64,000 bases of DNA from an uncultured Staphylococcaceae bacterium (GTDB taxonomy: Bacteria; Bacillota_I; Bacilli_A; RFN20; CAG-826). The notes under the pieces were generated by a model. That model made no database searches and was not told where the DNA came from. It saw only the letters and a program-made list of their open reading frames with translations. The translations under genes were made by a program, and so were the position numbers. Positions 73 to 28,530 of this stretch are shown one piece after another (the first letter of the stretch is position 1; the number at the start of each line of letters is the position of its first letter). The stretch is taken from contig CAZCCJ010000007.1 of NCBI GenBank assembly GCA_964497235.1, positions 16,503 through 80,502 of the forward strand, in the 5' to 3' direction.

Positions 73-1866
73 ATGCGGATGACGCAAGCTTCTTTTAAAA
101 ACGGATTGGCTGCCTTGAATGGTTTTTTCAGCCTCGAAAATCTTCCGAATCTCTTAATAACCGCAGCATTGTTGCTATGCATCGTTTTCGTTGTCGTCTT
201 GATCGTCACTTGGATCGTCTATTCGAAAAACGACGTCAAATACCTAAGGCATATGAATAGCGAGGTTAATAGCGTCCGTATCTACCGCATTGAAGCGGAG
301 CGAGCGCAAGTCACTTTCTTCGACTTGGGAAGGCTATCCAAGCAGAGGCATTGCACATTGAACGAATTCTATAATTCCTTCCCAGGCGGCGAGCCGACGA
401 GGGTCCGTAACTGGATCAACGACATTTTGGCCGAGAAGAAATCGGCCGATTATCTTCAGACTTCCGTCTATTTCCATCAGTCGAAAAGAAGGATGAACGC
501 CTTCTTGCATGTCCGTAAAACCGACGTCGCCCATGGCGTCATCCATTTGGAGAGCTATTTGCTGCCTTCGAGAAAAACCAAGGCATCGATAGGATCCTAT
601 ATCCGCTTATCGAGCGAAAGGGAATTCTCCGAGGCCCTTAGAAGCGTTAGCGGCGGGGCGGGCACCACCTATTGCTTCAGCCTCATCCAAAAAGCCCCTA
701 AAGGCATTAAGAGACAGACGAAATTGACGCAAGGGGCATCCTTCCGTTTCCGCATGGCCCTCGAGCCTTTCGTCAAAGGGAGCATGAAACTCATCCAAGC
801 CAGCGAAAGCGAATTCCTGATCGCCTCCTTCGAACAAGTCGATTCCACGGAGGCCATATCGTTCGCTTTGATGGCTGCCCATGAGGTTGAGAGGGAACTA
901 GCCCCTTTCAAGAGCAACAAACACCCAATCGAACTTCGCGTCGGAATCGTCAAAAACAAGGATTTGATGGGGGATGGGGACGCCATCATATCGAGTGCTA
1001 GAAGAACGGCCATGAACGCCTTTGAGACTACGAGCTCCATCGCTTTCTTCAAGCGCGGCACCGAGGATTATAGCGATAACGAAATCACCCAATATCGAAG
1101 CGAGGTCGAGCGCATCATCTATGAGAAGAGGATACTCTATTCATTCCGCCCGGTTTATTCTGTTTCGAAGAAAAAGGTTATTGGATATATGGGTAAGGCG
1201 ACGCCGAAATCGGATTGCGCCTTCGACTCGATAGACGAGCTTAAAAACTACGCCGTGCGGGCCAAAGACGATAAGAACCTCTTCGCCGCTTTGGCGAAGA
1301 ACTTGGTCGGGACCTTCGTTTCGGAAAGGGAACTAAAAAGCCAAAAGCTCTATTATCCGATCAGAGCCAGGGAAATGCCTTCCGTCCCTTCCTTCTTCAA
1401 GCGTTTAAAAGGAGCCAAAGACGCGAATATCGTCTTCACTTTGACTAATGATGACATCGCTTCCTCCGTTACGACTATCGGTTTGGAAACGCTAGTGGAG
1501 AACATGAACGCCATCAAGGAGAGCGGATACGGAATCGCCTATTCCTTAAGCGGAAAGAACCTCAACATCGAGCCTAATTTGCTCTCTTTGGCCGACGCTT
1601 TCTTTGTTGATTTCTCATCGAATGACGACGATTCGGGGCTTGATACGGCCATACGAAGCCAGCTTCACGCGCTCGTCGAAAAACTCCTCAAATACAAGAA
1701 ACCGATCATTGGCTCTAACCTTTCCAATTGGAATGCCTTAGAATTGGTCGTCGGAAGCGGGATGGAGTGCATATCGAGCGACGTCTTTGCCCCATATTCC
1801 CCGGCTTTGGCGCCGGTCAACGAGAAGAATGAAAACAGGATATTGATGCTGAAAGGAAATGCATAA
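73..1866 (+). CDS. membrane-anchored protein with fully degenerate GGDEF-like and EAL-like domains
   Basis: 597-aa ORF with a TM helix LLITAALLLCIVFVVVLIVTWIV. ASESEF occupies the GGDEF position, and ELRVGIV/ARRTAMNA resemble the GGDEF C-terminus. The C-terminal half is colinear with the EAL fold (ILYSFRPVY..VIGYMG, IVFTLTNDD, YGIAYSLSG, FFVDFS, PIIGSNLS), but the catalytic residues are substituted. Confidence 0.6.
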   Translation: MRMTQASFKNGLAALNGFFSLENLPNLLITAALLLCIVFVVVLIVTWIVYSKNDVKYLRHMNSEVNSVRIYRIEAERAQVTFFDLGRLSKQRHCTLNEFYNSFPGGEPTRVRNWINDILAEKKSADYLQTSVYFHQSKRRMNAFLHVRKTDVAHGVIHLESYLLPSRKTKASIGSYIRLSSEREFSEALRSVSGGAGTTYCFSLIQKAPKGIKRQTKLTQGASFRFRMALEPFVKGSMKLIQASESEFLIASFEQVDSTEAISFALMAAHEVERELAPFKSNKHPIELRVGIVKNKDLMGDGDAIISSARRTAMNAFETTSSIAFFKRGTEDYSDNEITQYRSEVERIIYEKRILYSFRPVYSVSKKKVIGYMGKATPKSDCAFDSIDELKNYAVRAKDDKNLFAALAKNLVGTFVSERELKSQKLYYPIRAREMPSVPSFFKRLKGAKDANIVFTLTNDDIASSVTTIGLETLVENMNAIKESGYGIAYSLSGKNLNIEPNLLSLADAFFVDFSSNDDDSGLDTAIRSQLHALVEKLLKYKKPIIGSNLSNWNALELVVGSGMECISSDVFAPYSPALAPVNEKNENRILMLKGNA

Positions 1867-1867
1867 T

Positions 1868-3307
1868 ATGGAAAACAAGAACAACGCGATCACCTCAAGG
1901 GACGTCGATTTCGCCCAATGGTATACGGATGTCTGCAAAAAAGCTAAGTTGATGGACTATGGCAGCGTGAAAGGATTCATCAACTATCTCCCGTATGGAT
2001 ATGCGATTTGGGAGGAGATACAAGCGTATCTCGATAAGAAATTCAAATCGATCGGCACGCAAAACGTCTATTTGCCGACGGTTATTCCCTCCTCTTTGTT
2101 CAACCGCGAGAAAGAGCATATCGAGGGGTTCGCGCCGGAATGCCTTGTTTGTACGATCGGAGGTGGGCAAGAGCTCGCCGATCCTTTGATCGTCCGTCCG
2201 ACTAGCGAGGTCCTCTTTAGCGACTTATTCAAGAAAATAGTCTCTTCATACCGCGATTTCCCGATTCTCTTCAATCAATGGTGCAGCGTCGTCCGTTGGG
2301 AAAAGACCACCCGTCCTTTCCTTCGCGGCTCGGAATTCCTTTGGCAAGAAGGGCATTGCCTTTTCGAGACCGAAGAAGACGCCGAAAACAACGCGAAATG
2401 GATTCTCGATAACGCATACGACGCTTGTGGAAAAGAACTTTTGGCCATCCCATTCCTAAAGGGCAAAAAGACGGAGCACGAGAAATTCGCCGGCGCCGTC
2501 AATACCTATTCCATCGAGGCTTTGATGCATGATGGGAAAGCCCTTCAAAGCGGCACTTCCCATTATTTAGGGACGGGATTTGCCGAGGCTTTTGGGATTT
2601 CTTATCAAGGAAGGAACAACGCTTTGACGGCCCCGCACCAGACTTCGTGGGGAGCGAGCACAAGGCTTTTAGGCGCCATCATCATGGTTCATGGCGATGA
2701 CAATGGACTCGTCCTTCCGCCATATGTCGCCCCAATCCAAGTCGTCATCATACCGGTCAGACAAAAAGAAGCGGGGGTGCTTGAGGCTTCGCAAAAGCTT
2801 TGCGACGAGCTCAAAGCCAAAGGAATCCGCGTCAAGCTCGATGCCGATGATTCGAGGACCCCGGGATGGAAGTTCGCCGAATATGAGATGAAGGGCGTGC
2901 CGCTACGCATTGAAATCGGCCCGCGCGATTTGGCAAAAGGGGAAGCGACACTCACCAAACGCGTCAATGGTGAGAAGAAGTCGTTGCCATTAGATTCCTT
3001 ATCTTCCTTAATTCCTGATTTGCTAAAGGAAATCCATCAGAATATGTACGATAAAGCCCTGGCTTTCCTTAACGACAACATCCATGACGTCAAAGACATC
3101 CAAGAGCTTAATGCCGTTTTGGGGAAAGGCGGCTACGCCCGCATGGCGTTTTGCGGCAAACCGGAATGCGAAGACGAGATCAAGGCCATCACCAATGGCG
3201 GCTCGGCCCGCGTCATTTACCAAGAGCTTCCGTCGGATACCGAGCTTCGTTGCCCAGTCTGCGGGGAGAAGGCGAAAGTCATCGCCTATTTCGCGAAAGC
3301 GTATTGA
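1868..3307 (+). CDS. proS: proline--tRNA ligase, archaeal/eukaryote-like class II type
   Basis: Motifs DFAQWYTDV, GFINYLPYGYAIWEEI, RPTSE, HQTSWG and the C-terminal CPVCGEKA. ATG 1868 has AGGA about 10 nt upstream. The alternative ATG 1859 overlaps the stop of gene 1. Confidence 0.93.
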   Translation: MENKNNAITSRDVDFAQWYTDVCKKAKLMDYGSVKGFINYLPYGYAIWEEIQAYLDKKFKSIGTQNVYLPTVIPSSLFNREKEHIEGFAPECLVCTIGGGQELADPLIVRPTSEVLFSDLFKKIVSSYRDFPILFNQWCSVVRWEKTTRPFLRGSEFLWQEGHCLFETEEDAENNAKWILDNAYDACGKELLAIPFLKGKKTEHEKFAGAVNTYSIEALMHDGKALQSGTSHYLGTGFAEAFGISYQGRNNALTAPHQTSWGASTRLLGAIIMVHGDDNGLVLPPYVAPIQVVIIPVRQKEAGVLEASQKLCDELKAKGIRVKLDADDSRTPGWKFAEYEMKGVPLRIEIGPRDLAKGEATLTKRVNGEKKSLPLDSLSSLIPDLLKEIHQNMYDKALAFLNDNIHDVKDIQELNAVLGKGGYARMAFCGKPECEDEIKAITNGGSARVIYQELPSDTELRCPVCGEKAKVIAYFAKAY

Positions 3308-3324
3308 TCGCATGCTGAAACCCA

Positions 3325-3350
3325 ATGGGCGCAAATGCGCCCATTTTTTA
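3325..3350 (+). terminator. rho-independent terminator after proS
   Basis: Perfect 8-bp stem atgggcgc/gcgcccat with loop aaat, followed by ttttt. Confidence 0.8.
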
Positions 3351-3383
3351 TATCTTTCGTGGCTTTAGGCACATCGTTTAGAT

Positions 3384-3389
3384 TATAAT
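3384..3389 (+). promoter_or_regulatory. -10 box TATAAT for the giant helicase gene
   Basis: tataat lies 9 nt upstream of ATG 3399, with spacer ctaagaaac and no SD. Confidence 0.5.
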
Positions 3390-3398
3390 CTAAGAAAC

Positions 3399-6300
3399 AT
3401 GGAACGAAACGAACAACTGGAACTCTCCCTTAGCATCAGAAAAGACATAAACTATGTCAATTATCAGGCGGAGACGCTTAAAAAAGAAACGACGGAAGGG
3501 GAATCGAATTCCTTCTCTTTTTTACGCTATATCGAAATAAAGAACATATCCGAAACGGACGTCAAGGATGTTTGGATCCGTTTCTCCACTAACCCTGAGC
3601 GTTTCCTCTCAATCGATCCGATACATATCTCTTTTCTAGAGAAGAAGAAAAGAACGGTCGTCAACCGTTTCGGCATCCATTTGGATATCGAATCGCTATA
3701 TAAGATAACCGAGAAGGCGTTGGCTTCGATAAAGGTGACGCTTGAAGACGATGCCGGAGATGTTTTGGCGGAAAAAGAAGAAAACATCGCCTTTTTGCCG
3801 ATTGAGGAAAGCGCATCGAACGATAGAATCGATGAGATACTCGCTTCTTTCGTGACCCCTAACGACCCTTCGGTCATCGACGTTCTTTCTAAAGCGCAGG
3901 AAATCAGCAAAGAGAAATACGGCCATTCGTCTTTCGAGGGGTATCTGCTTCACGATCCGAACAAGATCCTAGAGGAGATGGATGCGATATACACCGCTTT
4001 GAAGGGGTTAGGGATCCGCTATTCCTTGCCTCCCGCTTCCTTCGAATCGACCTTCCAAAAGATTAGGCTTCCGCGCGACGTCATCGCGAATAAGATCGCC
4101 ACTTGCATCGATTTCTCGATCCTTTTCGCCAGCGTCTTGGAAGCGGCCGGCATCAAGCCGATTCTCTTGATGTATAAAGGGCATTGCAACTTAGCGGCGT
4201 GGCTAGACGAATCATGCGCCTTTTATTCATCCAAAGAAGAGAATTCCCAAACGATACTCAATAACGCCTCCAAAGGATTCAATAACCTCGTCATCGTCGA
4301 GACCACCCATCTTGCGGACGGGACGGATATCTCATTCCATGAATCCACCGATAGGGCCTATCAAGAATTCGAGAAAGGAAAAGAATTCCAATATGCCTTG
4401 GATATCGCCTCTTGCCGTCATGATGGCATTTTGCCGATCCCTTCCCCAAAGACCCTTTCCGACGGAACCGTGTCCTTCGATTTCCCTTCGCTAAAAAGCG
4501 ATGACGCGAAGGCTCCAACCGTGGATTTGTCTTCCCGTCGTTTCCTTGATCCCTTAGCGAAAGGGAGAAAGAACCGCTTCGACTATTGGGAAGATAAGTT
4601 GCTAGATTTAAATCTCCGCAATCGCCTTATTTCCTATAAAAGCGGATCTAGCGGCATCGAACTTCTCTCTTATGACCCTGAGAAGGCCATTTCCTTCTTG
4701 TCGGACAGGGCGAAGGTGACGTTAGTCCCGGCGCCTTTGAACATCGATTCCGGCGGGAGAGCGCCGGCGATCCTATCCTTATCGCCTGCGGTTATAGCGA
4801 AAGACGTGGAGAATGCCTACTCGCACGACTCCCTATTGGCCGTCAATTTCTCAAATACCAGCGAGACGGCCCTCAAGAACCTATCGAGAAAAAGCAACAC
4901 AGCTCTTGAGGAAAGCGGATGCAACCCATTGTTTTTAACCCTCGGCTTGATACGTTGGTTCGATAATCCGAAAGCGGCGAGTAACGGCACAGGCGCGATG
5001 TACGCTCCTATTTTCTTGCTTCCCGTCAAGATGCCGCGCCGCAAAAGCGGTTCTTACTATTATCTGGAATATTCATTCGATGACCTCCAGCTCAATAGAA
5101 CGGCGTTCGAATATTTCAAAGAGGCATATGACCTCGATCTTTCGCGCCTTAATCCTCTTCCAAAAAAGAGCGACGGGCTTGTCGATTTACGCCTTATCTA
5201 TAACGAAATACGAAACACCATCGCCCCGATGAAGAATTGGGCTTTGATCGAGAACACGAGCGCTTTGTCGCTCTTCTCTTTCTCCCATTACGTCATGTGG
5301 AACGATCTAAGGAGCCATCGGAATGAGATGATGAACCATCCAATCGTCGCCTCTTTCGTCTATGGCGAGAAGAAGTGGAATTCGGCGGAGAACCTCGTCT
5401 CGCCAGAAGAGATGGACGCGAAGATATCGCCAAGCGATTTCGCCGCCCCATTGCCTGCGGATTCGTCGCAAATCAAAGCGATTATCGACGCAGAGAAAGG
5501 CGAATCGTTCGTACTCGATGGCCCTCCTGGCACTGGCAAAAGCCAAACGATAGCCAATATGATCGTCAATTTCCTTTACCATGGCAAAAAGGTTCTTTTC
5601 GTCGCAGAGAAGGAAGTGGCGCTAGACGTCGTCAAAAGGAGGCTTGACGATTTGCATTTAGGGCAATTCGTTTTGGAACTCGCTAACCTTGGCATGCCAA
5701 AAAGCGACATCTTATCCAATTATTCTCGCTTGCTTGAGCTCGGGCAGCTTTCGAACGACGAGAATTACGATAAGCAAAGCGAGGACTTGCTCGAAAAGAG
5801 AAAGAACCTCAACGCCATCATGTCATCCATGCATACCGATGCGCCGTATTTCCTTTCCCCATATGATGCGATAGTGATGTATCTAGAGAATGAGAAATAC
5901 GCGACGCCTGATGAGATTCCCTTCTCTTATGTTACCGATCTCTCGCATCTCGAATATAAGAAGGCCATCGCCTCTTTGGATGAATTGACCCGTTTGTCAA
6001 TGGGTTTCGGCGGCTATCATCTCTCTTCTTTCCTCGCTTTCCAAAAGAAGGAATATTCTTTGGCATATCGCGAAAAGGCCAAAGAAGAGGCCGAGAGCCT
6101 AAAGGCCTTATGCGACAAATTGCGTTTGGCATCGTATAACGCCATGTTCAAAGGCGGCATCAAGAAGGATAGCCGTCGGAACGTCGAAGCGTATTTGTCG
6201 ATAATCGCCACTTTGCAAAGCGGCACCCCAACCTATAAGGAATATTATCTCGATTCCCTCTTCTTAGAGAAAAAGGACATGGTGCTCTTCTTAGCGGAAA

Positions 6301-9221
6301 AGAAACTTGAACTTGCGAAAGGACTTGAGCAATGCTCCCTTTATTTCAACGATAGAGCGTATATCCTTAGCGACGTAGCTTCCTTGCTTAAAGAATTCGA
6401 AGGCATAAAGAAACTCTCCTTTTTCAAGAGAATAGGCGCGAAAAGGACGTTCTGGAAGAAACTAAAACCTTATTTCCTTTCCTCAAAGCGGCTCAAAGAC
6501 GATGAATTGTCCTCTGCCCTAAAGGAACTCGATTCCGTTAATGCCTTGAAGAAGGAGATCGAGAGCGCCGACCCATATGCGAAAGCGGTCCTTAAAACCC
6601 TTCCATTCGACGATTCTTCATCTTCTTCCGAAAGCGTCAACGAACTTAAGGCGACTTTCGCCATCGCTTCGGAACTAAAGAAGATGGAATACGATTCCGA
6701 TCCCGAGGAATTCGTTTCCTATCTCTCGGAAATGGGGAATGGGAAACTATTCGGCAAGACGAATGAGACGCTGAAATCGCTATACGACGAATTCCTTTCG
6801 AAGACGAAACGCATGGAAGACGAATTCGAAATCGACGTGTCTTTATATGGCGACGCTTCGAACTATTTCGGATACATCGCCTCGAAGATGAACGACGTTG
6901 TTTCATCGATTGGCAGGCTAAGCGATTGGACGAACGTCGTTTTGGCGTATCTAGAAGCCGCCAAAATGGTGCCCGAATCCCTTATGCTTTCCTTCCGAAA
7001 TGGAAAAATCCCCGACAAAAACCTATCGGATTCCTATATCGCGGACGTTTGCTTCGCTTTATTGACGCACGTTCTTTCGGAAAGGGGAATCGGGACGTTG
7101 TCACACGAGAAGACACTTAGCGAGATCTCTTCTTACCAAGAGGACATCAAAGCCTTCCAAAACGCATCGATCGTCGAGACGGCGTCAAGGATCACCGCCA
7201 AATTCCCAATCGGCGCCTCTTCCTTCGCTTCCTCGACTTCCGCTTATCAATTATCCAAATTGGCGAAAAACGGAGGTCGCGGATGCTCATTAAGGCACCT
7301 ATTCCACGAATATCGCGATTTGATATCCATCTTGACGCCTTGCTTCATGATGTCGCCGGCCACTTTGGCGCAATATCTTGATCCAAACGATTACCATTTC
7401 GACGTCGTCATATTCGATGAAGCTTCGCAAATACCGACAAGCGAAGCCGTCGGCGCTCTCTATCGCGCCTCTTCCTTCGTCATCGCCGGAGACGAGGAGC
7501 AGATGCCGCCATCGAATTATTTCGCTTCGTCTTTGTCGAATCAGGACGAAGCTTCTTCCTTGTCTTCCATCGATGAGGATTTGGAAAGTCTTTTAGACGA
7601 TGCAATCGTCCTTCGCTTGCCTAGGAAGCGTCTCACATGGCATTATCGCTCGCGCCATGAATCCTTGATATCTTTCTCGAATAACCGTTTTTATGGCAAT
7701 TCCCTTTTGACTTTCCCATCGCCTTCTTCCGAGAAGGGGAGCGTCTCTTTCAAGCTCGTCAAAGGCGCTTACGAAAGGGGAAGAGGAATCAATAAGCCAA
7801 GCGCTAAAGCGATCGTCTCCGAGATAATAAAGCGGTTGAAAGACCCTCTTTTAAGAAAGAAATCGATTGGTGTCATCACCTTCAATGAAGCGGAGCAAAA
7901 CCTCATTGAGGATATGCTAGAGAAGGAGCTTGCCCAGAATCCGCGTTTAGACAATGCGCCAGGCGGGGAGAAGATCTTCGTCAAGAACCTCGAAAACGTT
8001 CAAGGAGATGAGCGCGACGTCATCTTATTCGACATCACTTATGGGCCGGATAAGAATGGAGAATTATCGTTGAATTTCGGCCCTCTTTCACTAAAGAAAG
8101 GCGAAAGGAGGCTCAATGTCGCCGTATCCAGGGCAAGGGAAGCTATGGTCGTCTTCTCTTCCTTCGATCCTTCCTTGATCCGCGCCGAAAAGGCGAAAAA
8201 CGAAGGTGCCTCTTACCTAAGGGATTTCCTTTATTTCGCCAAAGGAGGCTATGACGCCCTTCCGAATCGATATGGCAACGAGAATTCGGAGAATCGCCTG
8301 GGCGTCGCTTCTTTCTTGGCGAACGATTTGAGGAAGAACGGATATAAGGTCACGGAGAACCTCGGCAACAGCTCCTTTAAGATCGACTTGGCGATAGCTT
8401 CGAATGAAGATCCTGAAGATTATGTCTTAGGCGTCCTTTTCGATAACCCATATATCGCGAAAATGAGTTGCCGAGATAGGCTTGTGAATGAGCCTTCCGT
8501 TTTGAAGCGGCTTTCCTGGAACCTAATTTCCCTCTATGGCGTCGAGTATTTGGACCATCGCGACGAAGTCCTTAAGACAGTCGTGAACGCGTATAACGAG
8601 GCGCTAAGCAAAAAAGAAAGAGGGGAAGACGAAAAAACGGTCCATGATTCGCCTCTATTCATCAAAAAACCCCGTCAAACCCCCAAGAATTTCAGGCCTT
8701 ACGCGAAAATGCCGATAACGAAGAAAGATGGGATATACGTTGAAACGTCCTTCTTGCAAGACGTCATAAACGCCGAATATCCGATAAGCACCGCCCTCTT
8801 AGATAAGAGAGTTCGCGATGCGTATGGCTTCGAGCGGATCGGAAGCAACATCAGGAATCAGATCTCCGGATGCTTGGCGAGCCTTGCTCCAGGCGTCGAG
8901 ACGTGCGGCAGCAGGACCTTCTACTATCCGCGTTACTACGTTCCGATGAACTATAGGTTCTGGAGAAAAAGCGACGAAAGCGTGCCGGAAAGAAGGATAG
9001 TCGACGTCGGATTCATCGAAATCGGCAATTGCGCGGCCGATATCTTACTTGAACAAGGGTCGATGTCTCTCGATGACCTCGCCAAATCCGTCTCCATGGC
9101 CTTCGGCTATTCGCTTCTTTCCAAGAGCGCGAACGATTATCTTAAGCAAGGCATCCGCTGGAACGATTCGAAGCGCTTAGGCATCTATATAGACGAGAAC
9201 AACATCGTCTCCCTCCGCTAA
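3399..9221 (+). CDS. 1940-aa multidomain Upf1-like SF1 helicase: transglutaminase-like N-terminal module, DUF4011-type region, AAA_11/AAA_12 helicase core, Vsr/DUF559-like nuclease-fold segment and DUF3320-like tail
   Basis: ATCIDFSILFASVLEAAGIKP..KGHCNLAAW (TGase-like). FDYWEDKLLDLNLRNRLISYK, NPLFLTLGLIRW and LSLFSFSHYVMWNDL (DUF4011-like). Helicase motifs GPPGTGKS, VVIFDEASQ, GDEEQMPP, WHYRSRHESLISFSN, QGDERDVILFD and RLNVAVSRAR. Nuclease-fold segment FKIDLAI..LGVLFDNPYIAK..CRDRL. DUF3320-like tail YPISTALLDKRVRDAYGFERIG. Confidence 0.85.
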   Translation: MERNEQLELSLSIRKDINYVNYQAETLKKETTEGESNSFSFLRYIEIKNISETDVKDVWIRFSTNPERFLSIDPIHISFLEKKKRTVVNRFGIHLDIESLYKITEKALASIKVTLEDDAGDVLAEKEENIAFLPIEESASNDRIDEILASFVTPNDPSVIDVLSKAQEISKEKYGHSSFEGYLLHDPNKILEEMDAIYTALKGLGIRYSLPPASFESTFQKIRLPRDVIANKIATCIDFSILFASVLEAAGIKPILLMYKGHCNLAAWLDESCAFYSSKEENSQTILNNASKGFNNLVIVETTHLADGTDISFHESTDRAYQEFEKGKEFQYALDIASCRHDGILPIPSPKTLSDGTVSFDFPSLKSDDAKAPTVDLSSRRFLDPLAKGRKNRFDYWEDKLLDLNLRNRLISYKSGSSGIELLSYDPEKAISFLSDRAKVTLVPAPLNIDSGGRAPAILSLSPAVIAKDVENAYSHDSLLAVNFSNTSETALKNLSRKSNTALEESGCNPLFLTLGLIRWFDNPKAASNGTGAMYAPIFLLPVKMPRRKSGSYYYLEYSFDDLQLNRTAFEYFKEAYDLDLSRLNPLPKKSDGLVDLRLIYNEIRNTIAPMKNWALIENTSALSLFSFSHYVMWNDLRSHRNEMMNHPIVASFVYGEKKWNSAENLVSPEEMDAKISPSDFAAPLPADSSQIKAIIDAEKGESFVLDGPPGTGKSQTIANMIVNFLYHGKKVLFVAEKEVALDVVKRRLDDLHLGQFVLELANLGMPKSDILSNYSRLLELGQLSNDENYDKQSEDLLEKRKNLNAIMSSMHTDAPYFLSPYDAIVMYLENEKYATPDEIPFSYVTDLSHLEYKKAIASLDELTRLSMGFGGYHLSSFLAFQKKEYSLAYREKAKEEAESLKALCDKLRLASYNAMFKGGIKKDSRRNVEAYLSIIATLQSGTPTYKEYYLDSLFLEKKDMVLFLAEKKLELAKGLEQCSLYFNDRAYILSDVASLLKEFEGIKKLSFFKRIGAKRTFWKKLKPYFLSSKRLKDDELSSALKELDSVNALKKEIESADPYAKAVLKTLPFDDSSSSSESVNELKATFAIASELKKMEYDSDPEEFVSYLSEMGNGKLFGKTNETLKSLYDEFLSKTKRMEDEFEIDVSLYGDASNYFGYIASKMNDVVSSIGRLSDWTNVVLAYLEAAKMVPESLMLSFRNGKIPDKNLSDSYIADVCFALLTHVLSERGIGTLSHEKTLSEISSYQEDIKAFQNASIVETASRITAKFPIGASSFASSTSAYQLSKLAKNGGRGCSLRHLFHEYRDLISILTPCFMMSPATLAQYLDPNDYHFDVVIFDEASQIPTSEAVGALYRASSFVIAGDEEQMPPSNYFASSLSNQDEASSLSSIDEDLESLLDDAIVLRLPRKRLTWHYRSRHESLISFSNNRFYGNSLLTFPSPSSEKGSVSFKLVKGAYERGRGINKPSAKAIVSEIIKRLKDPLLRKKSIGVITFNEAEQNLIEDMLEKELAQNPRLDNAPGGEKIFVKNLENVQGDERDVILFDITYGPDKNGELSLNFGPLSLKKGERRLNVAVSRAREAMVVFSSFDPSLIRAEKAKNEGASYLRDFLYFAKGGYDALPNRYGNENSENRLGVASFLANDLRKNGYKVTENLGNSSFKIDLAIASNEDPEDYVLGVLFDNPYIAKMSCRDRLVNEPSVLKRLSWNLISLYGVEYLDHRDEVLKTVVNAYNEALSKKERGEDEKTVHDSPLFIKKPRQTPKNFRPYAKMPITKKDGIYVETSFLQDVINAEYPISTALLDKRVRDAYGFERIGSNIRNQISGCLASLAPGVETCGSRTFYYPRYYVPMNYRFWRKSDESVPERRIVDVGFIEIGNCAADILLEQGSMSLDDLAKSVSMAFGYSLLSKSANDYLKQGIRWNDSKRLGIYIDENNIVSLR

Positions 9222-10732
9222 CTGGGTTTTCTTTTCCTCTCTTTCTCTTCCATCCTCACGATGGCGTTCTTTTTCCCATATATCGCCAAAAAGCAGGGGA
9301 CGACCATCACGAGCGTCGCCGCAAGCCATGCCAAAGGGTCGCCTAGCGCGGCTCCGATATAACTAGATAACGGCGATTCGCTGTTGGTTGGATTCATATC
9401 GTTGAGCGCCATAGGGAGATAGACGCAGATAATGACCCTGGCAAGGAGCTCCGCGACGCCGGAAAGGAAATTTGGCAAAGGGATTTCAAGCCCTTGCAAA
9501 GTGTTCCTAAGGATCAAAAGGAAGATGAGAAGGCACGATGGCGTCATCGCCACATAGATATAGGCATTGCCATAAGTGATAGATGCCTCGGTGATTTTGT
9601 CGCGGCTCAGGAATATGTATTGATAGGCCCCGTTTATCGTGAGTAGCAAAGAGGCCGCCAAAACGACCAAATAGATCGCCAAACCGATAAACAATGAAGA
9701 TATGAAGCCTTTTTTGATCCTATCTAAGTTCCTCGCCCCTAGGTTTTGGGAATGGAAGTTTAGCATCGCCATCCCGAGAGCGTTCATCGGAACCATGAAG
9801 AAATTGAGGATTTTGCACCCGACTCCATAGCCGAGCTCAGCCGGAAGGTCTGTCACAGCGGCGCCGCTAGGGGAGATGTCAAAACGGTTCACGGCCGATT
9901 GCATGACGATGATACCGACCGCCAAAATCGATAAGGCGAAGCCCAAAGGGAGTCCGTTTCGCAAGGATGATGAATTGATTTCGCCATCCCATTTGAAATC
10001 CTCTTTCGTCGGGCGTAGGTCTTTATAACGCCAATAAGCGTATACATAGCAAGCAAGCGCGGCGAGGCCTTGCGCGAATACCGTCGCGGCGGCGGCTCCG
10101 GCGACGCCCCAATAAAAGATCTTGATGAAGAGGAGGTCTAAGCAGATGTTTAGCGCGGTGCTCACCAATAAAAAGCAAAAAGGCGTGAAGCTATCGCCTT
10201 TCGCCCTAAGGACCGAGACGATATGGTTATAGAAAATCTGGGTGAGCATGCCGCCGAAGATAATCGAAAGATATATGCGTGCGCTTCGATAGATCTCGTT
10301 TCGAAGAGGATCTGAATCGCTAGGGGCGATGCCGATGAGTGAGAGAAGAGGGTCGATTGAAAAGACGCCAATCACGGTCAAAACGGCTGTCATTATGGCC
10401 AATAGGTATATCTGATTGACGATCGTCCGACGCGTCTTCGCCATGTCCTTGCTTCCGACGGCTTCGCCCACTACGACGCCGAAACCGCTCATGGCGCCGC
10501 TAGCGAAGTTAAGGAGCAAATAGACGATGTTAGTTGCGTTATTGACGGCCGAAACGTCGACTTCGCCTAATGTTTGCCCGACTATTATGCTATCGACGAG
10601 GGTATAGATCTGTTGGAAGAAAAGACTAAGGATTATCGGTATCAAAAACCGCAAAATGCCTTTCGCGACGTTTCCGCTAGTCAAATCTTCGGCTGAGAAA
10701 TAAGCCGCTATTTTCTTGATTCCCTTGCCCAT
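9218..10732 (-). CDS. MATE family efflux transporter
   Basis: 504-aa polytopic membrane protein. The N-terminus FLIPIILSLFFQQIYTLVDSIIVGQ is typical of MATE/NorM-like proteins. Its stop codon overlaps the stop of the convergent helicase gene at 9218-9221. Confidence 0.85.
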   Translation of the reverse strand: MGKGIKKIAAYFSAEDLTSGNVAKGILRFLIPIILSLFFQQIYTLVDSIIVGQTLGEVDVSAVNNATNIVYLLLNFASGAMSGFGVVVGEAVGSKDMAKTRRTIVNQIYLLAIMTAVLTVIGVFSIDPLLSLIGIAPSDSDPLRNEIYRSARIYLSIIFGGMLTQIFYNHIVSVLRAKGDSFTPFCFLLVSTALNICLDLLFIKIFYWGVAGAAAATVFAQGLAALACYVYAYWRYKDLRPTKEDFKWDGEINSSSLRNGLPLGFALSILAVGIIVMQSAVNRFDISPSGAAVTDLPAELGYGVGCKILNFFMVPMNALGMAMLNFHSQNLGARNLDRIKKGFISSLFIGLAIYLVVLAASLLLTINGAYQYIFLSRDKITEASITYGNAYIYVAMTPSCLLIFLLILRNTLQGLEIPLPNFLSGVAELLARVIICVYLPMALNDMNPTNSESPLSSYIGAALGDPLAWLAATLVMVVPCFLAIYGKKNAIVRMEEKERKRKPS

Positions 10733-12358: not shown

Positions 12359-13327
12359 ATGAGATATTTGTTCTTCGACATTGAGTGTTCCAATTGTTTC
12401 GACGGAATCGGGAAGATGTGCGAATTCGGCTACACGCTAACGGATGAGGAGTTTAACGTGATCGCCAAGCATGAATTCCCGATGAGCCCAGGTAAAGGAA
12501 AGAACAACCGTTTTCATCTTAGGGATCGTCTAAAGGGATCGGATTATATCGTTTTGGCGTATGACGAAAGCTATTATTACGAGCAACCCGAATTCCCTTA
12601 TTTCTATGAGAAGATAAAGAAACTGTTGTCTAATGAAGACACCTTGTGCTTCGGCTGGGCCATCTCTAACGACATTCAGTTTCTTTATGGCACTTGCAAG
12701 CGATATGGGAAAGAGCCTATCTCTTTCGACTATGTCGATGTCCAAAGAATCGCCGACATGTATTTCAAACTCAAGGCCCAAAGTGGACTCAAAGACGTTT
12801 GCGAGCGCCTGCTAGGCAAATCCGAATTGATTGGCATCCAAGAGCATCTGTCGAGCGACGACGCCAAAATGACGATGATGGTTTTGCGCTCGATCGCAAA
12901 GAAAGAGGGGCTTTCCTCAAAGGAACTACTCAAAAAGCTCGAATCCGCAAAACGAAACTCATCGCAATTCGCAAAGCGATACGAAGCGAAAATGGAAAAG
13001 ATGGCGCTTATCGAGAAGAACAATAAGGTCTATCGAAACGCCTTGAACGAGGACCACGAACGGGGGGCCGTCTCCCAAATCGGGCATCGTTATAGATTAA
13101 GCGGCGACGCCAAAAATAAGATCGAAGATATGGAAGCATTCATAAAAGCAATCCACGATAAAGGCGGCTTCTTCGTCAAAGAGCTTGGCGATGCGGACTT
13201 CTTGATACTTGGCGACATCGCGAAAAAAGACTCGATCGATGAGCATATCAAAGGACTTTTTCGAGGCGAATACGTATCATTGTCTTCGGTTATTGATGGT
13301 GAAACTTATGAGAATAGTCGAATCTGA
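12359..13327 (+). CDS. DEDDh 3'-5' exonuclease (DnaQ/KapD-like) with a BRCT-like C-terminal domain
   Basis: Exo I FFDIECSN, Exo II FGWAISNDIQFL, Exo III HLSSDDAKM. The C-terminus YRLSGD..GGFFVKELGDADFLILGD resembles BRCT. Confidence 0.7.
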   Translation: MRYLFFDIECSNCFDGIGKMCEFGYTLTDEEFNVIAKHEFPMSPGKGKNNRFHLRDRLKGSDYIVLAYDESYYYEQPEFPYFYEKIKKLLSNEDTLCFGWAISNDIQFLYGTCKRYGKEPISFDYVDVQRIADMYFKLKAQSGLKDVCERLLGKSELIGIQEHLSSDDAKMTMMVLRSIAKKEGLSSKELLKKLESAKRNSSQFAKRYEAKMEKMALIEKNNKVYRNALNEDHERGAVSQIGHRYRLSGDAKNKIEDMEAFIKAIHDKGGFFVKELGDADFLILGDIAKKDSIDEHIKGLFRGEYVSLSSVIDGETYENSRI

Positions 13328-13584: not shown

Positions 13585-14565
13585 CTATATAACGAGTTTC
13601 TTGGCTAATTCTCTAAGCCCTTCGATATCCAAAAATCCATGCAGATCGGCAATGTTTTTTATTTCCGTGCCTTTCAAAAGGAAATGCAGGCCATTTATCA
13701 ATCTATCGCCAAGCGTCTCGGATTCCATGTAATCGTTATCGCTCGTTTCCCGATTCATCTCTTCGTCGAACAAAACGATTAGCGAGCGCCTTATCAAAGA
13801 AAGCATCGACTTCTCTATCCAATAGGAGAAGGTCGCATTTGGGTGGATGTCTTCGTATTTTCTTAATTTGATATACATCGGGAGCCCATCTTCCGGCATA
13901 TGCCATAAATCGGCGAAGCAATAGTCGAATGCTTTGGCGTGTGAGAGATATTCAAACGCATCGCCTTCGATTATCTTTAGTTTTTCTTTGTTAGGGAAAA
14001 AGGGGAGCAAATGCTTCTTAAAAACCTCGATGATGTCTTTGTTATACTCAACGACCGTGACCTCTTCGACGTTCTTTTTCATAAGGACGTTATAGACGTA
14101 ATAGCCGATTCCTAGCCCTAAGGTCAAAACCTTGCCGTTGGCTTCTTCTATCGGTTTCCTCATCGTGTTGATTTCGTGCGGTATGACGCTCATCCAGGTC
14201 GCGTCTCCCTTCCCTAAAGCGAGATAACGGAATCCTTCGTCGAAATAGCCAAACGGCGTTCTTTCTTGATAAGTCATCGGATCATACGTTATTTCGTCAT
14301 ATACGAACCCTTCCTTTTTCCGATAACGTTCATAACGCAGGAAAACATCGTCGATTTCGCATTCTTTCGGAAGGACGTTATTCATGTATGGATCGTCGAT
14401 ATAATCGGAAATGGAAAGCCTTTTGGCCTTAGGAAGCCACTCGTTTTCGGGGATTTCTCCGAACAAAACGGCATTCCAGAAATCGGATTCCTCTATCGTG
14501 AGATCGAGAGAACGAAGTATCTTTTTCCATTCTCTCTTTTCCTTTTCGCTTAAGAAAATTTTCAT
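13585..14565 (-). CDS. class I SAM-dependent methyltransferase / spermidine-synthase-like fold protein
   Basis: VLTLGLGIGYY (motif I), VVEYNKDII, IIEGDAFEYL and FDYCFADLW. ATG 14565 is preferred over GTG 14571 because of the TAGAAT-6-ATG promoter geometry. Confidence 0.6.
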   Translation of the reverse strand: MKIFLSEKEKREWKKILRSLDLTIEESDFWNAVLFGEIPENEWLPKAKRLSISDYIDDPYMNNVLPKECEIDDVFLRYERYRKKEGFVYDEITYDPMTYQERTPFGYFDEGFRYLALGKGDATWMSVIPHEINTMRKPIEEANGKVLTLGLGIGYYVYNVLMKKNVEEVTVVEYNKDIIEVFKKHLLPFFPNKEKLKIIEGDAFEYLSHAKAFDYCFADLWHMPEDGLPMYIKLRKYEDIHPNATFSYWIEKSMLSLIRRSLIVLFDEEMNRETSDNDYMESETLGDRLINGLHFLLKGTEIKNIADLHGFLDIEGLRELAKKLVI

Positions 14566-14571
14566 ACGCAC

Positions 14572-14600
14572 ATTCTATGTTTTGAGAGATTTCTTCTCAA
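14572..14600 (-). promoter_or_regulatory. promoter TTGAGA-17-TAGAAT, 6 nt from ATG 14565
   Basis: Reverse complement of tctcaa (14595-14600) and attcta (14572-14577). Mirror image of the plus-strand promoter. Confidence 0.6.
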
Positions 14601-14610
14601 GGCGTATCAT
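14582..14610 (+). promoter_or_regulatory. promoter TTGAGA-17-TATCAT, 6 nt from ATG 14617
   Basis: ttgaga at 14582-14587 and tatcat at 14605-14610, then spacer atcgcc and the ATG. Confidence 0.6.
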
Positions 14611-14616
14611 ATCGCC

Positions 14617-15015
14617 ATGAACGAATCCAAGGTGATATTAACGAATCTATGCATGGTCTATCGCGATGATGGTTCGTTTTTGGTGCAGCTTAGGAAAAAG
14701 AAGGATTGGCCGGGGATAAACTTCCCGGGGGGACATGTCGAGAAAGACGAATCGATTCTCGATAGCGTGCGCCGCGAAATGAAGGAAGAGACGGGGTTAG
14801 AGGTTTTCGATTTAAAGCCGTGCGGCTATTTCGAGTGGAATGTGCCAAGCGAAAACGTCAGGCATCTTTCTCTCTTATTCAAAACGAATGAATTCAAAGG
14901 GGAAATATCATCGAGCGAAGAAGGGGAGGTCTTTTGGATTAAAGAAAGGGACCTCAACAAATACCCCCAATCGACGGATTTCGATTTATTGCTCAAGCAA
15001 ATGAAGGAATATTAA
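14617..15015 (+). CDS. NUDIX hydrolase (MutT-like)
   Basis: Nudix box GGHVEKDESILDSVRREMKEETGL. Confidence 0.88.
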   Translation: MNESKVILTNLCMVYRDDGSFLVQLRKKKDWPGINFPGGHVEKDESILDSVRREMKEETGLEVFDLKPCGYFEWNVPSENVRHLSLLFKTNEFKGEISSSEEGEVFWIKERDLNKYPQSTDFDLLLKQMKEY

Positions 15016-16613
15016 TCGAAGAATTCTTTTCTTTTCTCGATTTCCTTAGCGTCGATTTTGCCGATTGGCGTGCGAGGCAACCTATCGATGAAGAAGATTT
15101 TTTCTGGCATATAGGAGAATGGCAACGACGACGATATCTTCTCGGTTATCGCTTTTTTCGCCTCTTCGTCGCTTATCGGGTGATCACCCTTCCTTTTGAC
15201 GGCCAATAGCCGAAGCTTCGAGCCTTTCCGTGCATCGCTTACGCCATAGCAATAGGCGTCGAAAACGTCTTCTAGGGAAAGAACGACATCCTCGATTTCG
15301 CTAGGGCAAATCGTCTCGCCGTTGATTTTGACGATTCTTCTGATCCTTTGACGAAAATAATTGAAGCCGTCTTCGTCGCAATAGCCGTAATCCTTCGTCA
15401 AGAAATAACGTTCCCCATCGATATGGATGAATTCGTCTTCGTTTGCTTCTGACTCGGTGAGATAGCCGTTCATCAAGGAAGGTCCGCCTATCGCTATTTC
15501 TCCCGATTCGCCATTCTTTTTCTCTATTTTCGTAGCGGTATCGAGTATTTTGATCTTAACGCCTGGAAGCGCCGTTCCGATTGAGCCGTTTTTATCGTGC
15601 CCTTTGGTGCTTACGGCGACGACTCCGGCCTCGGTTAGGCCATAGCCTTGGTATAGCTTCGCCTCGCTTCCGTTATTTCTCATGGCCGCGTTCCATCGCT
15701 TCAAAAGGCTTTCGGGGACGTTATCGCCTCCGACAAAGGCGGTTATCTGCTTCCTTAGGTGTTTCCCATAGAATGAATCTCGTGCCAATAACGCATTATA
15801 TAGCGAAGGCACGCCGAGGATGACCGTGCTATCGCCCTTCTTGATGTGTCTAATGGCTTCCTTTGTTCGGAAACGGAGCATTAACACCGACGCGCCGCCA
15901 AATGACAAAGGAGTGTGGACGCCCATCTCAAGGCCGAAGACGTGGAATAGGGGAATGGCCGTCAAGATCCTTATCGATTCATATGGCCCGCCGATCAACT
16001 GATAGCTGTTTTTGCCGATATGGTTTATGGCCTCGTTCGACAAACGGACGACTTTGGGCTTTCCATCCGTCCCACCGGTGTTTAGATACACGGCATCGTT
16101 GTTTTCACTCACATCCGTTTTCGGAAAAACCCCGCAAAAGGGCTTTATTTTTGAAAAATAAACGGAATTCGTAGGCTTTTTTGCTTTCATTTTGAAAACG
16201 AACGATTTGATTTTGGATGAGGATTCATATGGGTTCACGGCGAATGCGCGAATGTCTTTCCCATAATCATCTTCTCTTTCTTTCCCAGTGACGAAAAGAA
16301 ACTTGGAATTGGCCTCTTTCATCATTTTGATGACGTTATCGACTGGCGAAAGGGGATGGATGTTATAGGAGATGGCACCGATTTTGCTAATCGCGTAAAA
16401 GATGGAAACGGTCTCTATTGAATTCGGTAACGCCAAAGTGACGACGTCGCCTTTCCTTATTCCGATGGATATGAGCCTTCTGGCGGCTGAGTCGATTAAT
16501 TTATCTAGTTTCTTATAGCTTATCTTTTTCCTCTCGAAAAGAATCGCAAGGTTATTGGGGAATCTTTTCGCCGTTTCGAAGAATTGGTCGTATAGCGATT
16601 CGATTTTCATCAT
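15012..16613 (-). CDS. AMP-dependent synthetase/ligase (acyl-CoA synthetase family)
   Basis: TGGTDGKPKVV, YGLTEAG, GEIAIGGPSLMNGY, TKDYGYCDEDGFNYF and LPRTPIGKID. The start is at MMKIESLY (ATGATGA overlap with the upstream gene's stop), not at 16736. Confidence 0.88.
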   Translation of the reverse strand: MMKIESLYDQFFETAKRFPNNLAILFERKKISYKKLDKLIDSAARRLISIGIRKGDVVTLALPNSIETVSIFYAISKIGAISYNIHPLSPVDNVIKMMKEANSKFLFVTGKEREDDYGKDIRAFAVNPYESSSKIKSFVFKMKAKKPTNSVYFSKIKPFCGVFPKTDVSENNDAVYLNTGGTDGKPKVVRLSNEAINHIGKNSYQLIGGPYESIRILTAIPLFHVFGLEMGVHTPLSFGGASVLMLRFRTKEAIRHIKKGDSTVILGVPSLYNALLARDSFYGKHLRKQITAFVGGDNVPESLLKRWNAAMRNNGSEAKLYQGYGLTEAGVVAVSTKGHDKNGSIGTALPGVKIKILDTATKIEKKNGESGEIAIGGPSLMNGYLTESEANEDEFIHIDGERYFLTKDYGYCDEDGFNYFRQRIRRIVKINGETICPSEIEDVVLSLEDVFDAYCYGVSDARKGSKLRLLAVKRKGDHPISDEEAKKAITEKISSSLPFSYMPEKIFFIDRLPRTPIGKIDAKEIEKRKEFFD

Positions 16614-17566
16614 AACCCTTTGATCTTCGCCCCCAAAGAAAGAATCATGACAATCATTATGGCATAGATGACGACTTGGTGCGTGACGTATATGAGAAGA
16701 GAATGTCGCCCCATGAAAGCAATCGGCTTGCCCCATTTCGTCGGGAAGGAATCCGGCAATATCGATTTTCTCTCCTTATAGAGGTTTTTTCCTATCGCAC
16801 TTCCGAGCAAAATCACGATCGTGACGTTAAGCGGCGAGAAATAATCGTCGCCATAACGGAATTTTCCAAGCATTAGGCCGATTAGGTTATAGACGCAATC
16901 GCCGAAATCCTTCGCGTTTTGCGGATTGATTCTCTCCATATACCCATGGGAATGGGCGTTTAGCGTCACGAAGCCGTTTAGCGCGATTAGAGGCAAGGCG
17001 AGAAGCAAATCTTGCCACCATTCTTTGAAGAAAAGATCGAAAAGGGAATAGATCAATAGCCCGATGGACATCGAATTCAATATGCCGAACCAAATATGGA
17101 TTTCGATGATTCCGGTGTAGGAGATGGAATCCAGCGCGATCGTGACTAGGATCGCCAAATAGCATAGCTTGACGGATCGCGACATATTCGACTTCGAAAA
17201 GGCACAGGAGATGCCGGATAGCAGCATGAAGACGCCGGAAAAGAAGATTTCCAAGCAATAGAGGTTGGTGTGGAGGTTATAGCCGGCTAGGGCGAAACTC
17301 GAATTGACTCCGCCAGAAAGGGCGCCATTCGGCTGCGTCACCGATAGGAAGACGAACTCGAAGAAGGTCGACATCCCTTCGATCCATGAAGGAGCCTCTC
17401 CTTCGAAGCTCATCATCGCCTCATAGCCATATCCGAAAGTGTAGCAGCCATGGATCAAAATCATCAAAAAAACGGCGATGCCGCGTATGAAATCCAATTC
17501 GAATATCCTTTTCGGCTTCTTTTCTCCAGCACGAAGCGGCAAGGACATCGCCTTGTCGCAGGTCAT
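16610..17566 (-). CDS. DUF1624 / heparan-alpha-glucosaminide N-acetyltransferase-like membrane acyltransferase
   Basis: FELDFIRGIAVFLMILIHG plus about 9 TM segments. 4-nt overlaps with both neighbours. Confidence 0.7.
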   Translation of the reverse strand: MTCDKAMSLPLRAGEKKPKRIFELDFIRGIAVFLMILIHGCYTFGYGYEAMMSFEGEAPSWIEGMSTFFEFVFLSVTQPNGALSGGVNSSFALAGYNLHTNLYCLEIFFSGVFMLLSGISCAFSKSNMSRSVKLCYLAILVTIALDSISYTGIIEIHIWFGILNSMSIGLLIYSLFDLFFKEWWQDLLLALPLIALNGFVTLNAHSHGYMERINPQNAKDFGDCVYNLIGLMLGKFRYGDDYFSPLNVTIVILLGSAIGKNLYKERKSILPDSFPTKWGKPIAFMGRHSLLIYVTHQVVIYAIMIVMILSLGAKIKGL

Positions 17567-28377: not shown

Positions 28378-28451
28378 TGGAGCAGGTGACGGGAATCGAA
28401 CCCGCGTATTCAGCTTGGAAGGCTGAAGTTCTACCATTGAACTACACCTGC
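28378..28451 (-). tRNA. tRNA-Gly (anticodon TCC), encoded CCA
   Basis: Reverse complement reads GCAGGTG-TA-GTTC..GAAC, anticodon arm TCAGC-CTTCCAA-GCTGA, T-loop TTCGATT, CACCTGC-T-CCA. Confidence 0.92.
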
Positions 28452-28453
28452 GC

Positions 28454-28530
28454 TGGCGGACCATACGAGATTCGAACTCGTGATCTCCTCCGTGACAGGG
28501 AGGCATGTTAGACCGCTACACCAATGGTCC
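28454..28530 (-). tRNA. tRNA-Asp (anticodon GTC), encoded CCA
   Basis: Reverse complement reads GGACCAT...CCTCC-CTGTCAC-GGAGG...GTTCGAATC...ATGGTCC-G-CCA. Confidence 0.92.

Follow-up and report, generated by a model that had tools for sequence, protein, structure and literature searches.

We examined a 64-kb stretch of contig CAZCCJ010000007.1, hereafter called the window, which originates from an uncultured gut bacterium of the Bacilli/Mollicutes type. Its relatives carry the labels "Bacilli bacterium", "uncultured Mollicutes bacterium", or "Tenericutes bacterium". The analysis centred on the open reading frame (ORF) at positions 3399–9221 (+), which codes for a helicase–nuclease assigned to the ProA/PDC-S37 family. 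The ORF starts with ATG, is uninterrupted, and encodes 1940 amino acids (aa), representing a real and intact gene. As a preliminary description of the window had claimed, it is the largest ORF of the 64 kb, the runner-up encoding 1109 aa. Upstream lies proS (1859–3307, +), identified as the prolyl-tRNA synthetase (ProRS) gene by the Pfam models tRNA-synt_2b, HGTP_anticodon, and ProRS-C_1. It is preceded by a gene for a conserved 597-aa protein (73–1866, +), for which neither Pfam nor PADLOC gave a match. The two genes overlap by 8 nt, which suggests translational coupling, and the pair is kept across the whole clade with 28–95% identity. On the other side, the TAA stop codon of the 1940-aa ORF (9219–9221) overlaps the stop codon (9218–9220, –) of a convergent MatE-family efflux gene (9218–10732, –), as had been noted before. 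A MatE gene is also the downstream neighbour in the related loci L001, L002, L006, L010, L011, L090, L100, and L102–L104.

The region between proS and the 1940-aa ORF carries signals for both the end and the start of transcription. An intrinsic-terminator-like hairpin with a T run occupies positions 3324–3355 (+). The hairpin itself (3324–3345; 9-bp stem with six GC pairs) begins 17 nt past the end of proS and coincides with the terminator previously placed at 3325–3350. Comparable hairpins follow proS in L001, L003, and L005. A TATAAT box resembling a –10 element was likewise found by inspection where it had been reported (3384–3389, +), 9 nt upstream of the ATG. In the orthologous loci L001, L002, L003, L090, and L100, the same hexamer lies 2–9 nt upstream of the start codon. 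Because both the terminator behind proS and the TATAAT box recur in orthologous loci, the predicted transcription unit of the 1940-aa gene is very probably its own. No Shine–Dalgarno sequence precedes the ATG, and a two-hexamer promoter scan revealed no full sigma-70 site upstream of the ORF. The proximity of the TATAAT box to a start codon lacking a Shine–Dalgarno sequence possibly points to a leaderless or near-leaderless mRNA. The recurrence of this spacing in several loci suggests that leaderless translation occurs in the lineage.

The protein consists, from the N- to the C-terminus, of an Ig-like beta-sandwich, a transglutaminase/PNGase-like domain, DUF4011, a split Upf1-like SF1B helicase, a Vsr-like nuclease, and two winged helices (DUF3320 region). 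Its homologues span 100% of the 1940 residues. The preliminary description had proposed a beta-rich N-terminus, a transglutaminase-like core, a DUF4011-type region, a Upf1-like helicase with a large insertion, a Vsr/DUF559-like segment, and a DUF3320-like tail, and each of these was recovered by profile searches or structure prediction. The AlphaFold model of aa 1–690 had a mean predicted local distance difference test score (pLDDT) of 80.7. It places the beta-sandwich at aa ~7–133 (3417–3797, +), with pLDDT values mostly of 85–91, and Foldseek matched this domain with a probability of ~1.0 to the chaperones Caf1M and FimC, to HAP2 domain 3, RhoGDI, and UNC119. The adjacent alpha/beta domain at aa ~185–345 (3951–4433, +) is predicted to adopt a papain-like fold of the transglutaminase/PNGase type. 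The Foldseek matches comprised TG2, TG3, factor XIII, PNGase, and the putative cysteine proteases 3isr and 3kd4. Their probabilities ranged from 0.6 to 1.0, with E-values of only 4e-4 to 2e-2, which are modest because the query contains several domains. The Pfam hidden Markov models (HMMs) for transglutaminases stayed below threshold (DUF553, 19.8 versus 20.5 bits; Transglut_core, 14 versus 23 bits). DUF4011 itself was detected with confidence at aa 400–568 (4596–5102, +; Pfam PF13195, E 3.1e-25). The conserved region extends to about aa 690, and an alignment of 40 homologues spanning 29–91% identity shows that its invariant residues include W397, L401, L402, D403, N408, R497, G507, and N509.

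The helicase core follows directly. The N-terminal part of its first RecA domain (RecA1; 5460–5831, +) contains the Walker A motif GPPGTGKS at aa 708–715 and is covered by Pfam AAA_11 at aa 688–811. This model scored 57.4 bits against a cut-off of 27 and matched a second stretch as well. Motif II, DEASQ (aa 1340–1344, within FDEASQ at aa 1339–1344), opens the segment through RecA2 (7269–8168, +). Both motifs occupy the residues given in the preliminary description. The RecA2 segment matches AAA_12 at aa 1397–1587 (64.3 bits, cut-off 27) and carries motifs III–VI in the form of GDxxQ(M)PP, WHYRSRHESLI, QGDERD, and RLNVAVSRAR. With motifs I, Ia, II, III, V, and VI present and both AAA models above their gathering scores, the protein belongs to the Upf1-like SF1B helicases. 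The matching helicase cores in sequence and profile searches of the PDB were those of IGHMBP2, Sen1, Dna2, and Upf1. These matches are split into aa ~685–811 and aa ~1331–1585, which confirms an insertion of about 480–520 aa in RecA1. The inserted segment (aa ~812–1290; 5832–7268, +) showed low column conservation in the 40-homologue alignment. When the whole protein was used as the query, the same PDB searches returned helicase cores of Upf1-like proteins and no solved relative of Hhe or ProA.

The C-terminal part was modelled with a mean pLDDT of 84.7 (aa 1575–1940). It contains a Vsr/DUF559-like endonuclease domain at aa 1640–1731 (8316–8591, +), which scored 48.7 bits against the cut-off of 38.2 for the MTES_1575 model (Pfam PF18741). 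Foldseek aligned this domain with 3hrl (probability 1.0, template modelling (TM) score 0.71) and with I-Bth0305I (3r3p, TM score 0.70). The Pfam score, the fold, and the acidic active-site residues thus all assign it to the PD-(D/E)xK-related nucleases of the Vsr/DUF559 type. Two winged-helix domains complete the protein (aa ~1783–1940; 8745–9218, +; pLDDT >90) and resemble the winged helices of the cullin WHB domain, ESCRT-II, and kleisin/JetB. The Pfam DUF3320 call is marginal, with 24.3 bits versus a cut-off of 25. Both this weak call and that for the transglutaminase-like domain are backed by the AlphaFold models and Foldseek, which give the respective folds. A Pfam scan of the entire protein revealed no HEPN, PLD, RNA-binding, or RNase domain.

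The catalytic residues of the three putative enzymes are well preserved. Throughout the 40-homologue alignment, the Walker A residues G708–S715 and motif II (D1340–Q1344) are invariant, and the later helicase motifs behave likewise. In the nuclease domain, D1663 and D1693 are invariant, while D1682 and the acidic residue at position 1716 (E1716; Glu or Asp) are conserved. For the transglutaminase-like domain, we surveyed 86 long representatives of clusters formed at 50% identity. The candidate triad C236–H262–E301 is retained in nearly all of them, with C236 present in 83 and H262 in 82 of the 86 sequences. Position 301 is acidic in 84 of them (Glu in 78, Asp in 6). Y182, D238, E248, and D335 are nearly invariant as well. 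In the AlphaFold model, C236 is located at the N-terminus of a helix and H262 at the start of a strand. As the residues of the helicase, the nuclease, and the Cys-His-Glu domain are all conserved, the three enzymatic modules look active. The Cys-His-Glu domain, which together with the preceding Ig-like domain makes up the N-terminal module, is the least understood part of the protein and may serve in protein-directed sensing or processing.

Comparison with curated models placed the protein within a catalogued family. The NCBIfam equivalog model NF058533, "anti-phage protein ProA", aligned with aa 36–1905 over model positions 6–1902 of 1903 and gave 1467.2 bits, which narrowly misses the curated cut-off of 1500 bits. 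The same model yielded 2224 bits for a homologue on a Klebsiella plasmid, 2197 bits for one from Bacteroides, 2110 bits for one from Ruminococcus, and 1524 bits for a Bacilli relative that is 36% identical to the window protein. The order of the parts, from the N-terminal beta-sandwich and the transglutaminase-like module through DUF4011 and the split SF1B helicase to the Vsr-like nuclease and DUF3320, is collinear with that of ProA, and the length of about 1900–2000 aa is similar. The window protein differs from typical members, which score 2100–2200 bits and to which the window clade is only about 30% identical. Moreover, the window gene is chromosomal, vertically inherited, and syntenic, and not located on plasmids or integrative and conjugative elements (ICEs). 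Older database entries name members of the family, judging by the cluster names, only as "DUF3320/DUF4011 domain-containing protein". The PADLOC model PDC-S37 matched nearly over its full length (929 bits, E 1.2e-279, model positions 8–1537 of 1550). Like PDC-S37, the window gene represents a single-gene system that lacks a conserved partner. In contrast to the window protein, the PDC-S37 model begins at DUF4011 (aa 392) and leaves the N-terminal 390 aa outside.

The next relative is Hhe, a system that reportedly goes back to Gao et al. in 2020. Compared through HMM models, Hhe and the window protein both carry DUF4011, a split Upf1-like helicase, a Vsr-like nuclease, and DUF3320 on one polypeptide, with conserved acidic nuclease residues. 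The matches of the Hhe models to the window protein are, however, partial and below threshold. NCBIfam NF042953 reached 589 bits against a cut-off of 2000, with the best stretch at aa 970–1795, so that the protein falls outside Hhe proper. The PADLOC model for Hhe reached 392 bits, with the best stretch in the C-terminal half (aa 1293–1734). Hhe protects against lambda, T3, T7, and PhiV-1, and the activity is lost in the nuclease mutant E1731A (10.1101/2022.06.16.496414). A knockout screen pointed to the activity of DNA-metabolism genes of T7, and to Bas63 gene 40, as candidate triggers of Hhe (10.1101/2024.10.10.617714). The combination of a transglutaminase, a Vsr-family restriction endonuclease (REase), and a winged helix-turn-helix (wHTH, DUF3320) was described in 2013 by Aravind's group for MTES_1575 (Anantharaman et al.; PMC3710099). 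MTES_1575, the namesake of the Pfam nuclease model, unites these three domains in one large protein, as the window protein does with its transglutaminase-like counterpart. It differs by an additional HEPN (SWT1/Abi2) RNase domain, of which Pfam detected none in the window protein. The preliminary description had stated that the DUF4011…DUF3320 architecture has no assigned function. This does not hold, as Hhe is a validated anti-phage protein, the domain combination was described in 2013 (PMC3710099), and the full architecture is modelled as ProA.

The distinction from Mokosh made in that description proved right. MkoA and MkoC matched the helicase core only (87–94 bits) and Pfam found no PLD domain, so that we rejected membership in this system. 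The window protein shares the SF1B motifs of the Upf1-like core with Mokosh as well as with Upf1, IGHMBP2, Sen1, and Dna2. It differs from these proteins in having neither a PLD nuclease nor a CH domain and in its other accessory domains. From the ProA, PDC-S37, and Hhe model scores, we place the window protein, as a divergent branch, in the ProA/PDC-S37 family, whose sister group is Hhe. The architecture is thus already catalogued under ProA, PDC-S37, and the related Hhe, and the gene does not represent a novel type of system.

The wider family is broadly distributed. At about 30% identity, we counted at least 597 confirmed matches with the full-length architecture in species-representative genomes. 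They cover at least seven phyla, namely Bacillota, Bacteroidota, Pseudomonadota, Actinomycetota, Verrucomicrobiota, Planctomycetota, and Lentisphaerota. Homologues occur in 540 plasmid records, of which 244 belong to Klebsiella and 108 to Ralstonia, and phage genomes contain essentially none. On a Klebsiella IncF plasmid, the homologue resides amid insertion sequence (IS) elements and a gene with an AbiJ domain, and a megablast search of E. coli genomes with the Klebsiella plasmid homologue gave no match. The P. aeruginosa homologue (L125, 7917–14582, +; UniRef group Q1W553_PSEAI, n = 37 entries) comprises 2221 aa, with about 200–280 extra residues, and occurs on at least 1000 contigs. Apparently carried as cargo by an ICE or plasmid, it adjoins ParDE and the bacteriocin gene PaeM. 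In Bacteroides finegoldii (L124), a ProA-scoring homologue is located between rpsA and a convergent gene of the reverse transcriptase family (13822–14952, –). The L124 record is labelled as a plasmid, yet it carries housekeeping genes and may be a chromosomal fragment. A search with the N-terminal module alone gave 3765 representative clusters at E ≤ 1e-3 and 1797 at the stricter E ≤ 1e-10. Most of the best 150 of these matches are proteins of about 1900–2000 aa, and the shorter ones may be fragments. A wide, patchy distribution on plasmids and ICEs, as observed here, is typical of defence or accessory genes.

In the host lineage, the history of the gene can be followed at a single site. The 1940-aa gene stands directly behind the 597-aa gene and proS, both in the window and in orthologous loci whose proteins are down to 42% identical. 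At these loci, the orthologues show 91, 68, 66, 59, 53, 52, 47–48, and 42% identity, and the corresponding ProRS proteins, in the same order, 97, 85, 89, 79, about 70, 73, 68–72, and 73%. The helicase gene has thus followed the divergence of ProRS, and at a higher rate. Its GC content (0.480) and the GC content at third codon positions (GC3, 0.595) equal those of the neighbouring genes, indicating a native composition. We determined the ratio of nonsynonymous to synonymous substitution rates (dN/dS) between the window and the locus of the 91% orthologue. The values were 0.066 for the 1940-aa gene, 0.024 for proS, and 0.092 for the MATE gene. The 1940-aa gene is thus under strong purifying selection. 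A recently transferred island was rejected on the grounds of this matching composition (GC and GC3) and of the deep synteny.

The loci were placed with a neighbour-joining tree of ProRS, which revealed that the gene is not retained everywhere. It is missing downstream of proS in one ProRS subclade (L105–L107, L110, and L111), where genes for GH31, RhuM, HTH-HIT, APH, AraC, and thioesterase proteins are found instead, and it is also missing from the outlying locus L120. L108 groups with the gene-less subclade, with only 2.7 kb available past proS. In a sister subclade (L092–L098), a shorter paralogue on the opposite strand takes the place of the full ProA-type gene. Examples are a 1592-aa protein lacking the N-terminal module (L095, 16895–21673, –) and a 1318-aa protein lacking both this module and DUF4011 (L092, 17798–21754, –). 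Genes for HD-domain and glyoxalase proteins lie in between at the loci of the shorter paralogues. The absence or replacement behind proS argues that the gene is dispensable. Of two more distant relatives, one (44% identity) is found right after gidA-gidB-parA-parB near the origin region and the other (39% identity) in a polysaccharide locus. The pattern is one of old acquisition and long vertical inheritance with occasional loss or replacement.

The relatives' loci revealed no conserved partner gene beside the 1940-aa gene. The preliminary description had regarded the protein as a self-contained unit in which a helicase is joined to enzyme modules and partner genes are lacking. Both this view and the anatomy given there were right. 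In L002, the locus of the 68% relative, two small ORFs lie between proS and the big gene (9215–9777 region), and a KilA-N domain gene separates the big gene from the MATE gene (16181–16813 region). The flanks of the big gene thus tolerate small insertions. Close to the big gene, at a distance of a few kb, L001 (4550–5890, –) and L006 (15926–17275, +) each have a gene for an AAA_14/DUF4143 ATPase. It differs in position between the two loci and may be mobile or accessory. When the flanking genes of the window were searched with defence models, only generic domain matches were obtained, so that no defence neighbours were identified. A NUDIX protein (14617–15015, +) matched PADLOC PDC-S07 weakly (46 bits), and a DEDDh/RNase_T-like exonuclease (12359–13327, +) was weakly similar to a Cas-associated DEDDh model. 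Generic domain resemblance, rather than a defence gene, seems to account for both matches. Two adjacent tRNA genes (28381–28530, –) were the sole matches in the window at the Rfam gathering thresholds.

We consider it probable that the gene encodes a single-polypeptide helicase–nuclease of the ProA/PDC-S37 family, listed as anti-phage or candidate anti-phage in curated resources, which would act on foreign or aberrant DNA. The defence role suspected in the preliminary description agrees with these resources, namely the NCBIfam model ProA, the PADLOC model PDC-S37, and the relation to Hhe. An SF1B motor combined with a Vsr-like endonuclease and winged helices, taken together with the Hhe data, supports a nuclease-dependent interference that would be triggered by phage DNA metabolism. 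Several points weigh against this assignment. The score for ProA remains just below the curated cut-off, and literature searches did not retrieve the publication behind the name ProA. PDC-S37 (PADLOC-DB v2) is presumably a phage defence candidate only and not a validated system, and a literature search on it found nothing. Hhe, which is more distant, is therefore the only one with direct anti-phage evidence. A literature search for a transglutaminase combined with Vsr and a helicase in phage defence was likewise without result. The fixed position behind proS, the native GC and GC3 values, the low dN/dS, and the absence of defence neighbours add to these points. The preliminary description had named a core gene at a syntenic position, universally present and free of any defence association, as an outcome that would speak against defence. 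The syntenic position behind proS and the lack of defence neighbours were indeed found, whereas universality was not, and a universal core gene was rejected because one subclade has lost the gene or carries a replacement. A defence function in this organism is thus suggested by homology.

The same evidence bears on the main rival, in which the protein of this small-genome lineage would be a domesticated housekeeping enzyme of genome maintenance and not an immune protein, and would process replication, repair, or R-loop intermediates in the manner of Dna2 or Sen1. Long vertical inheritance at the proS site with a divergence that tracks ProRS, strong purifying selection on a gene of native GC and GC3, and the missing defence neighbours are all in its favour. 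So are the relative positioned directly after gidA-gidB-parA-parB near the origin region, a helicase core like those of Dna2, Sen1, and IGHMBP2, and the large DUF4011 gene of P. aeruginosa, which is a core gene in every isolate (PMC10250203). We nevertheless regard such a function as rather unlikely. One subclade lacks the gene behind proS, and elsewhere shorter, oppositely oriented paralogues stand in for it. The wider family has a patchy distribution and is often found on plasmids and ICEs, and curated models name it anti-phage. Furthermore, an ICE disrupts a DUF4011 gene in a viable strain of Mycoplasma hominis (PMC12228374). This ICE insertion can equally be counted for a surveillance nuclease that, similar to DdmDE or Wadjet, would guard DNA entry against conjugative plasmids, ICEs, and transforming DNA rather than phages. 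A helicase joined to a DNA nuclease and a wHTH would suit the recognition of incoming or replicating foreign DNA, and competition between elements is expected where the family often travels, as cargo of plasmids and ICEs. The sole experimental data in the wider family, those on Hhe, concern phages, and we consider an anti-plasmid role improbable. Least likely of all, and only marginally credible, is a helicase for the surveillance or decay of RNA, as suggested by the Upf1-like motifs. The closest solved helicase cores do include the RNA helicases Upf1, Sen1, and IGHMBP2. The reading is disfavoured by the fused effector, which has the fold of a Vsr-type DNA endonuclease and is accompanied by tandem winged helices, and by the lack of an RNA-binding or RNase domain in the Pfam scan. 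Hhe, in addition, requires its Vsr nuclease for defence (10.1101/2022.06.16.496414).

The analysis establishes the domains and their order, the intact catalytic residues, a place in the family broadly taken, the purifying selection, and the distribution. For the preferred ProA/PDC-S37-type defence protein, we infer a substrate, a trigger, a polarity, a role of the transglutaminase-like domain, and a defence phenotype in this organism along the following lines. Expression would be driven by a promoter of its own, and the transcript is probably leaderless. Acting jointly with DUF4011, the RecA1 insertion, and both winged helices, the SF1B motor would engage nucleic acid and translocate in the 5'→3' direction. 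Encounters of the motor with foreign or aberrant DNA, for instance intermediates of phage replication or recombination, would lead to cleavage of that DNA by the fused Vsr-like endonuclease. For the N-terminal module, the most likely role is that of an enzyme or sensor directed at proteins, such as a thiol peptidase, an amidase, or a cross-linker. The module may link the nuclease to a step in which a protein is recognised or processed, or may serve as a second effector. A more specific proposal is that the module acts as a protein-modifying or proteolytic enzyme and provides a protein-level sensing or effector step in ProA-type proteins, the protein having possibly been domesticated in this lineage as a chromosomal guardian or housekeeping factor. 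We put this forward tentatively and think it has a small chance of being correct. If true, such a protein-level step would be mechanistically new among helicase–nuclease defence proteins.

The assignment removes a false lead, since the architecture is known and the gene is a divergent example of its family. The literature searched held no mechanism for this family, and PDB sequence and profile searches no solved relative, and the strongly conserved Cys-His-Glu transglutaminase-like domain stands out as an unexplained enzymatic module. What is unusual about the window gene is its stable inheritance beside proS in a gut Bacilli lineage and the apparently active Cys-His-Glu domain of its product. 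It represents a rare case in which a defence-type gene has been kept at one chromosomal site over deep divergence. The lineage is thus useful for asking whether defence-type proteins can become fixed host functions.

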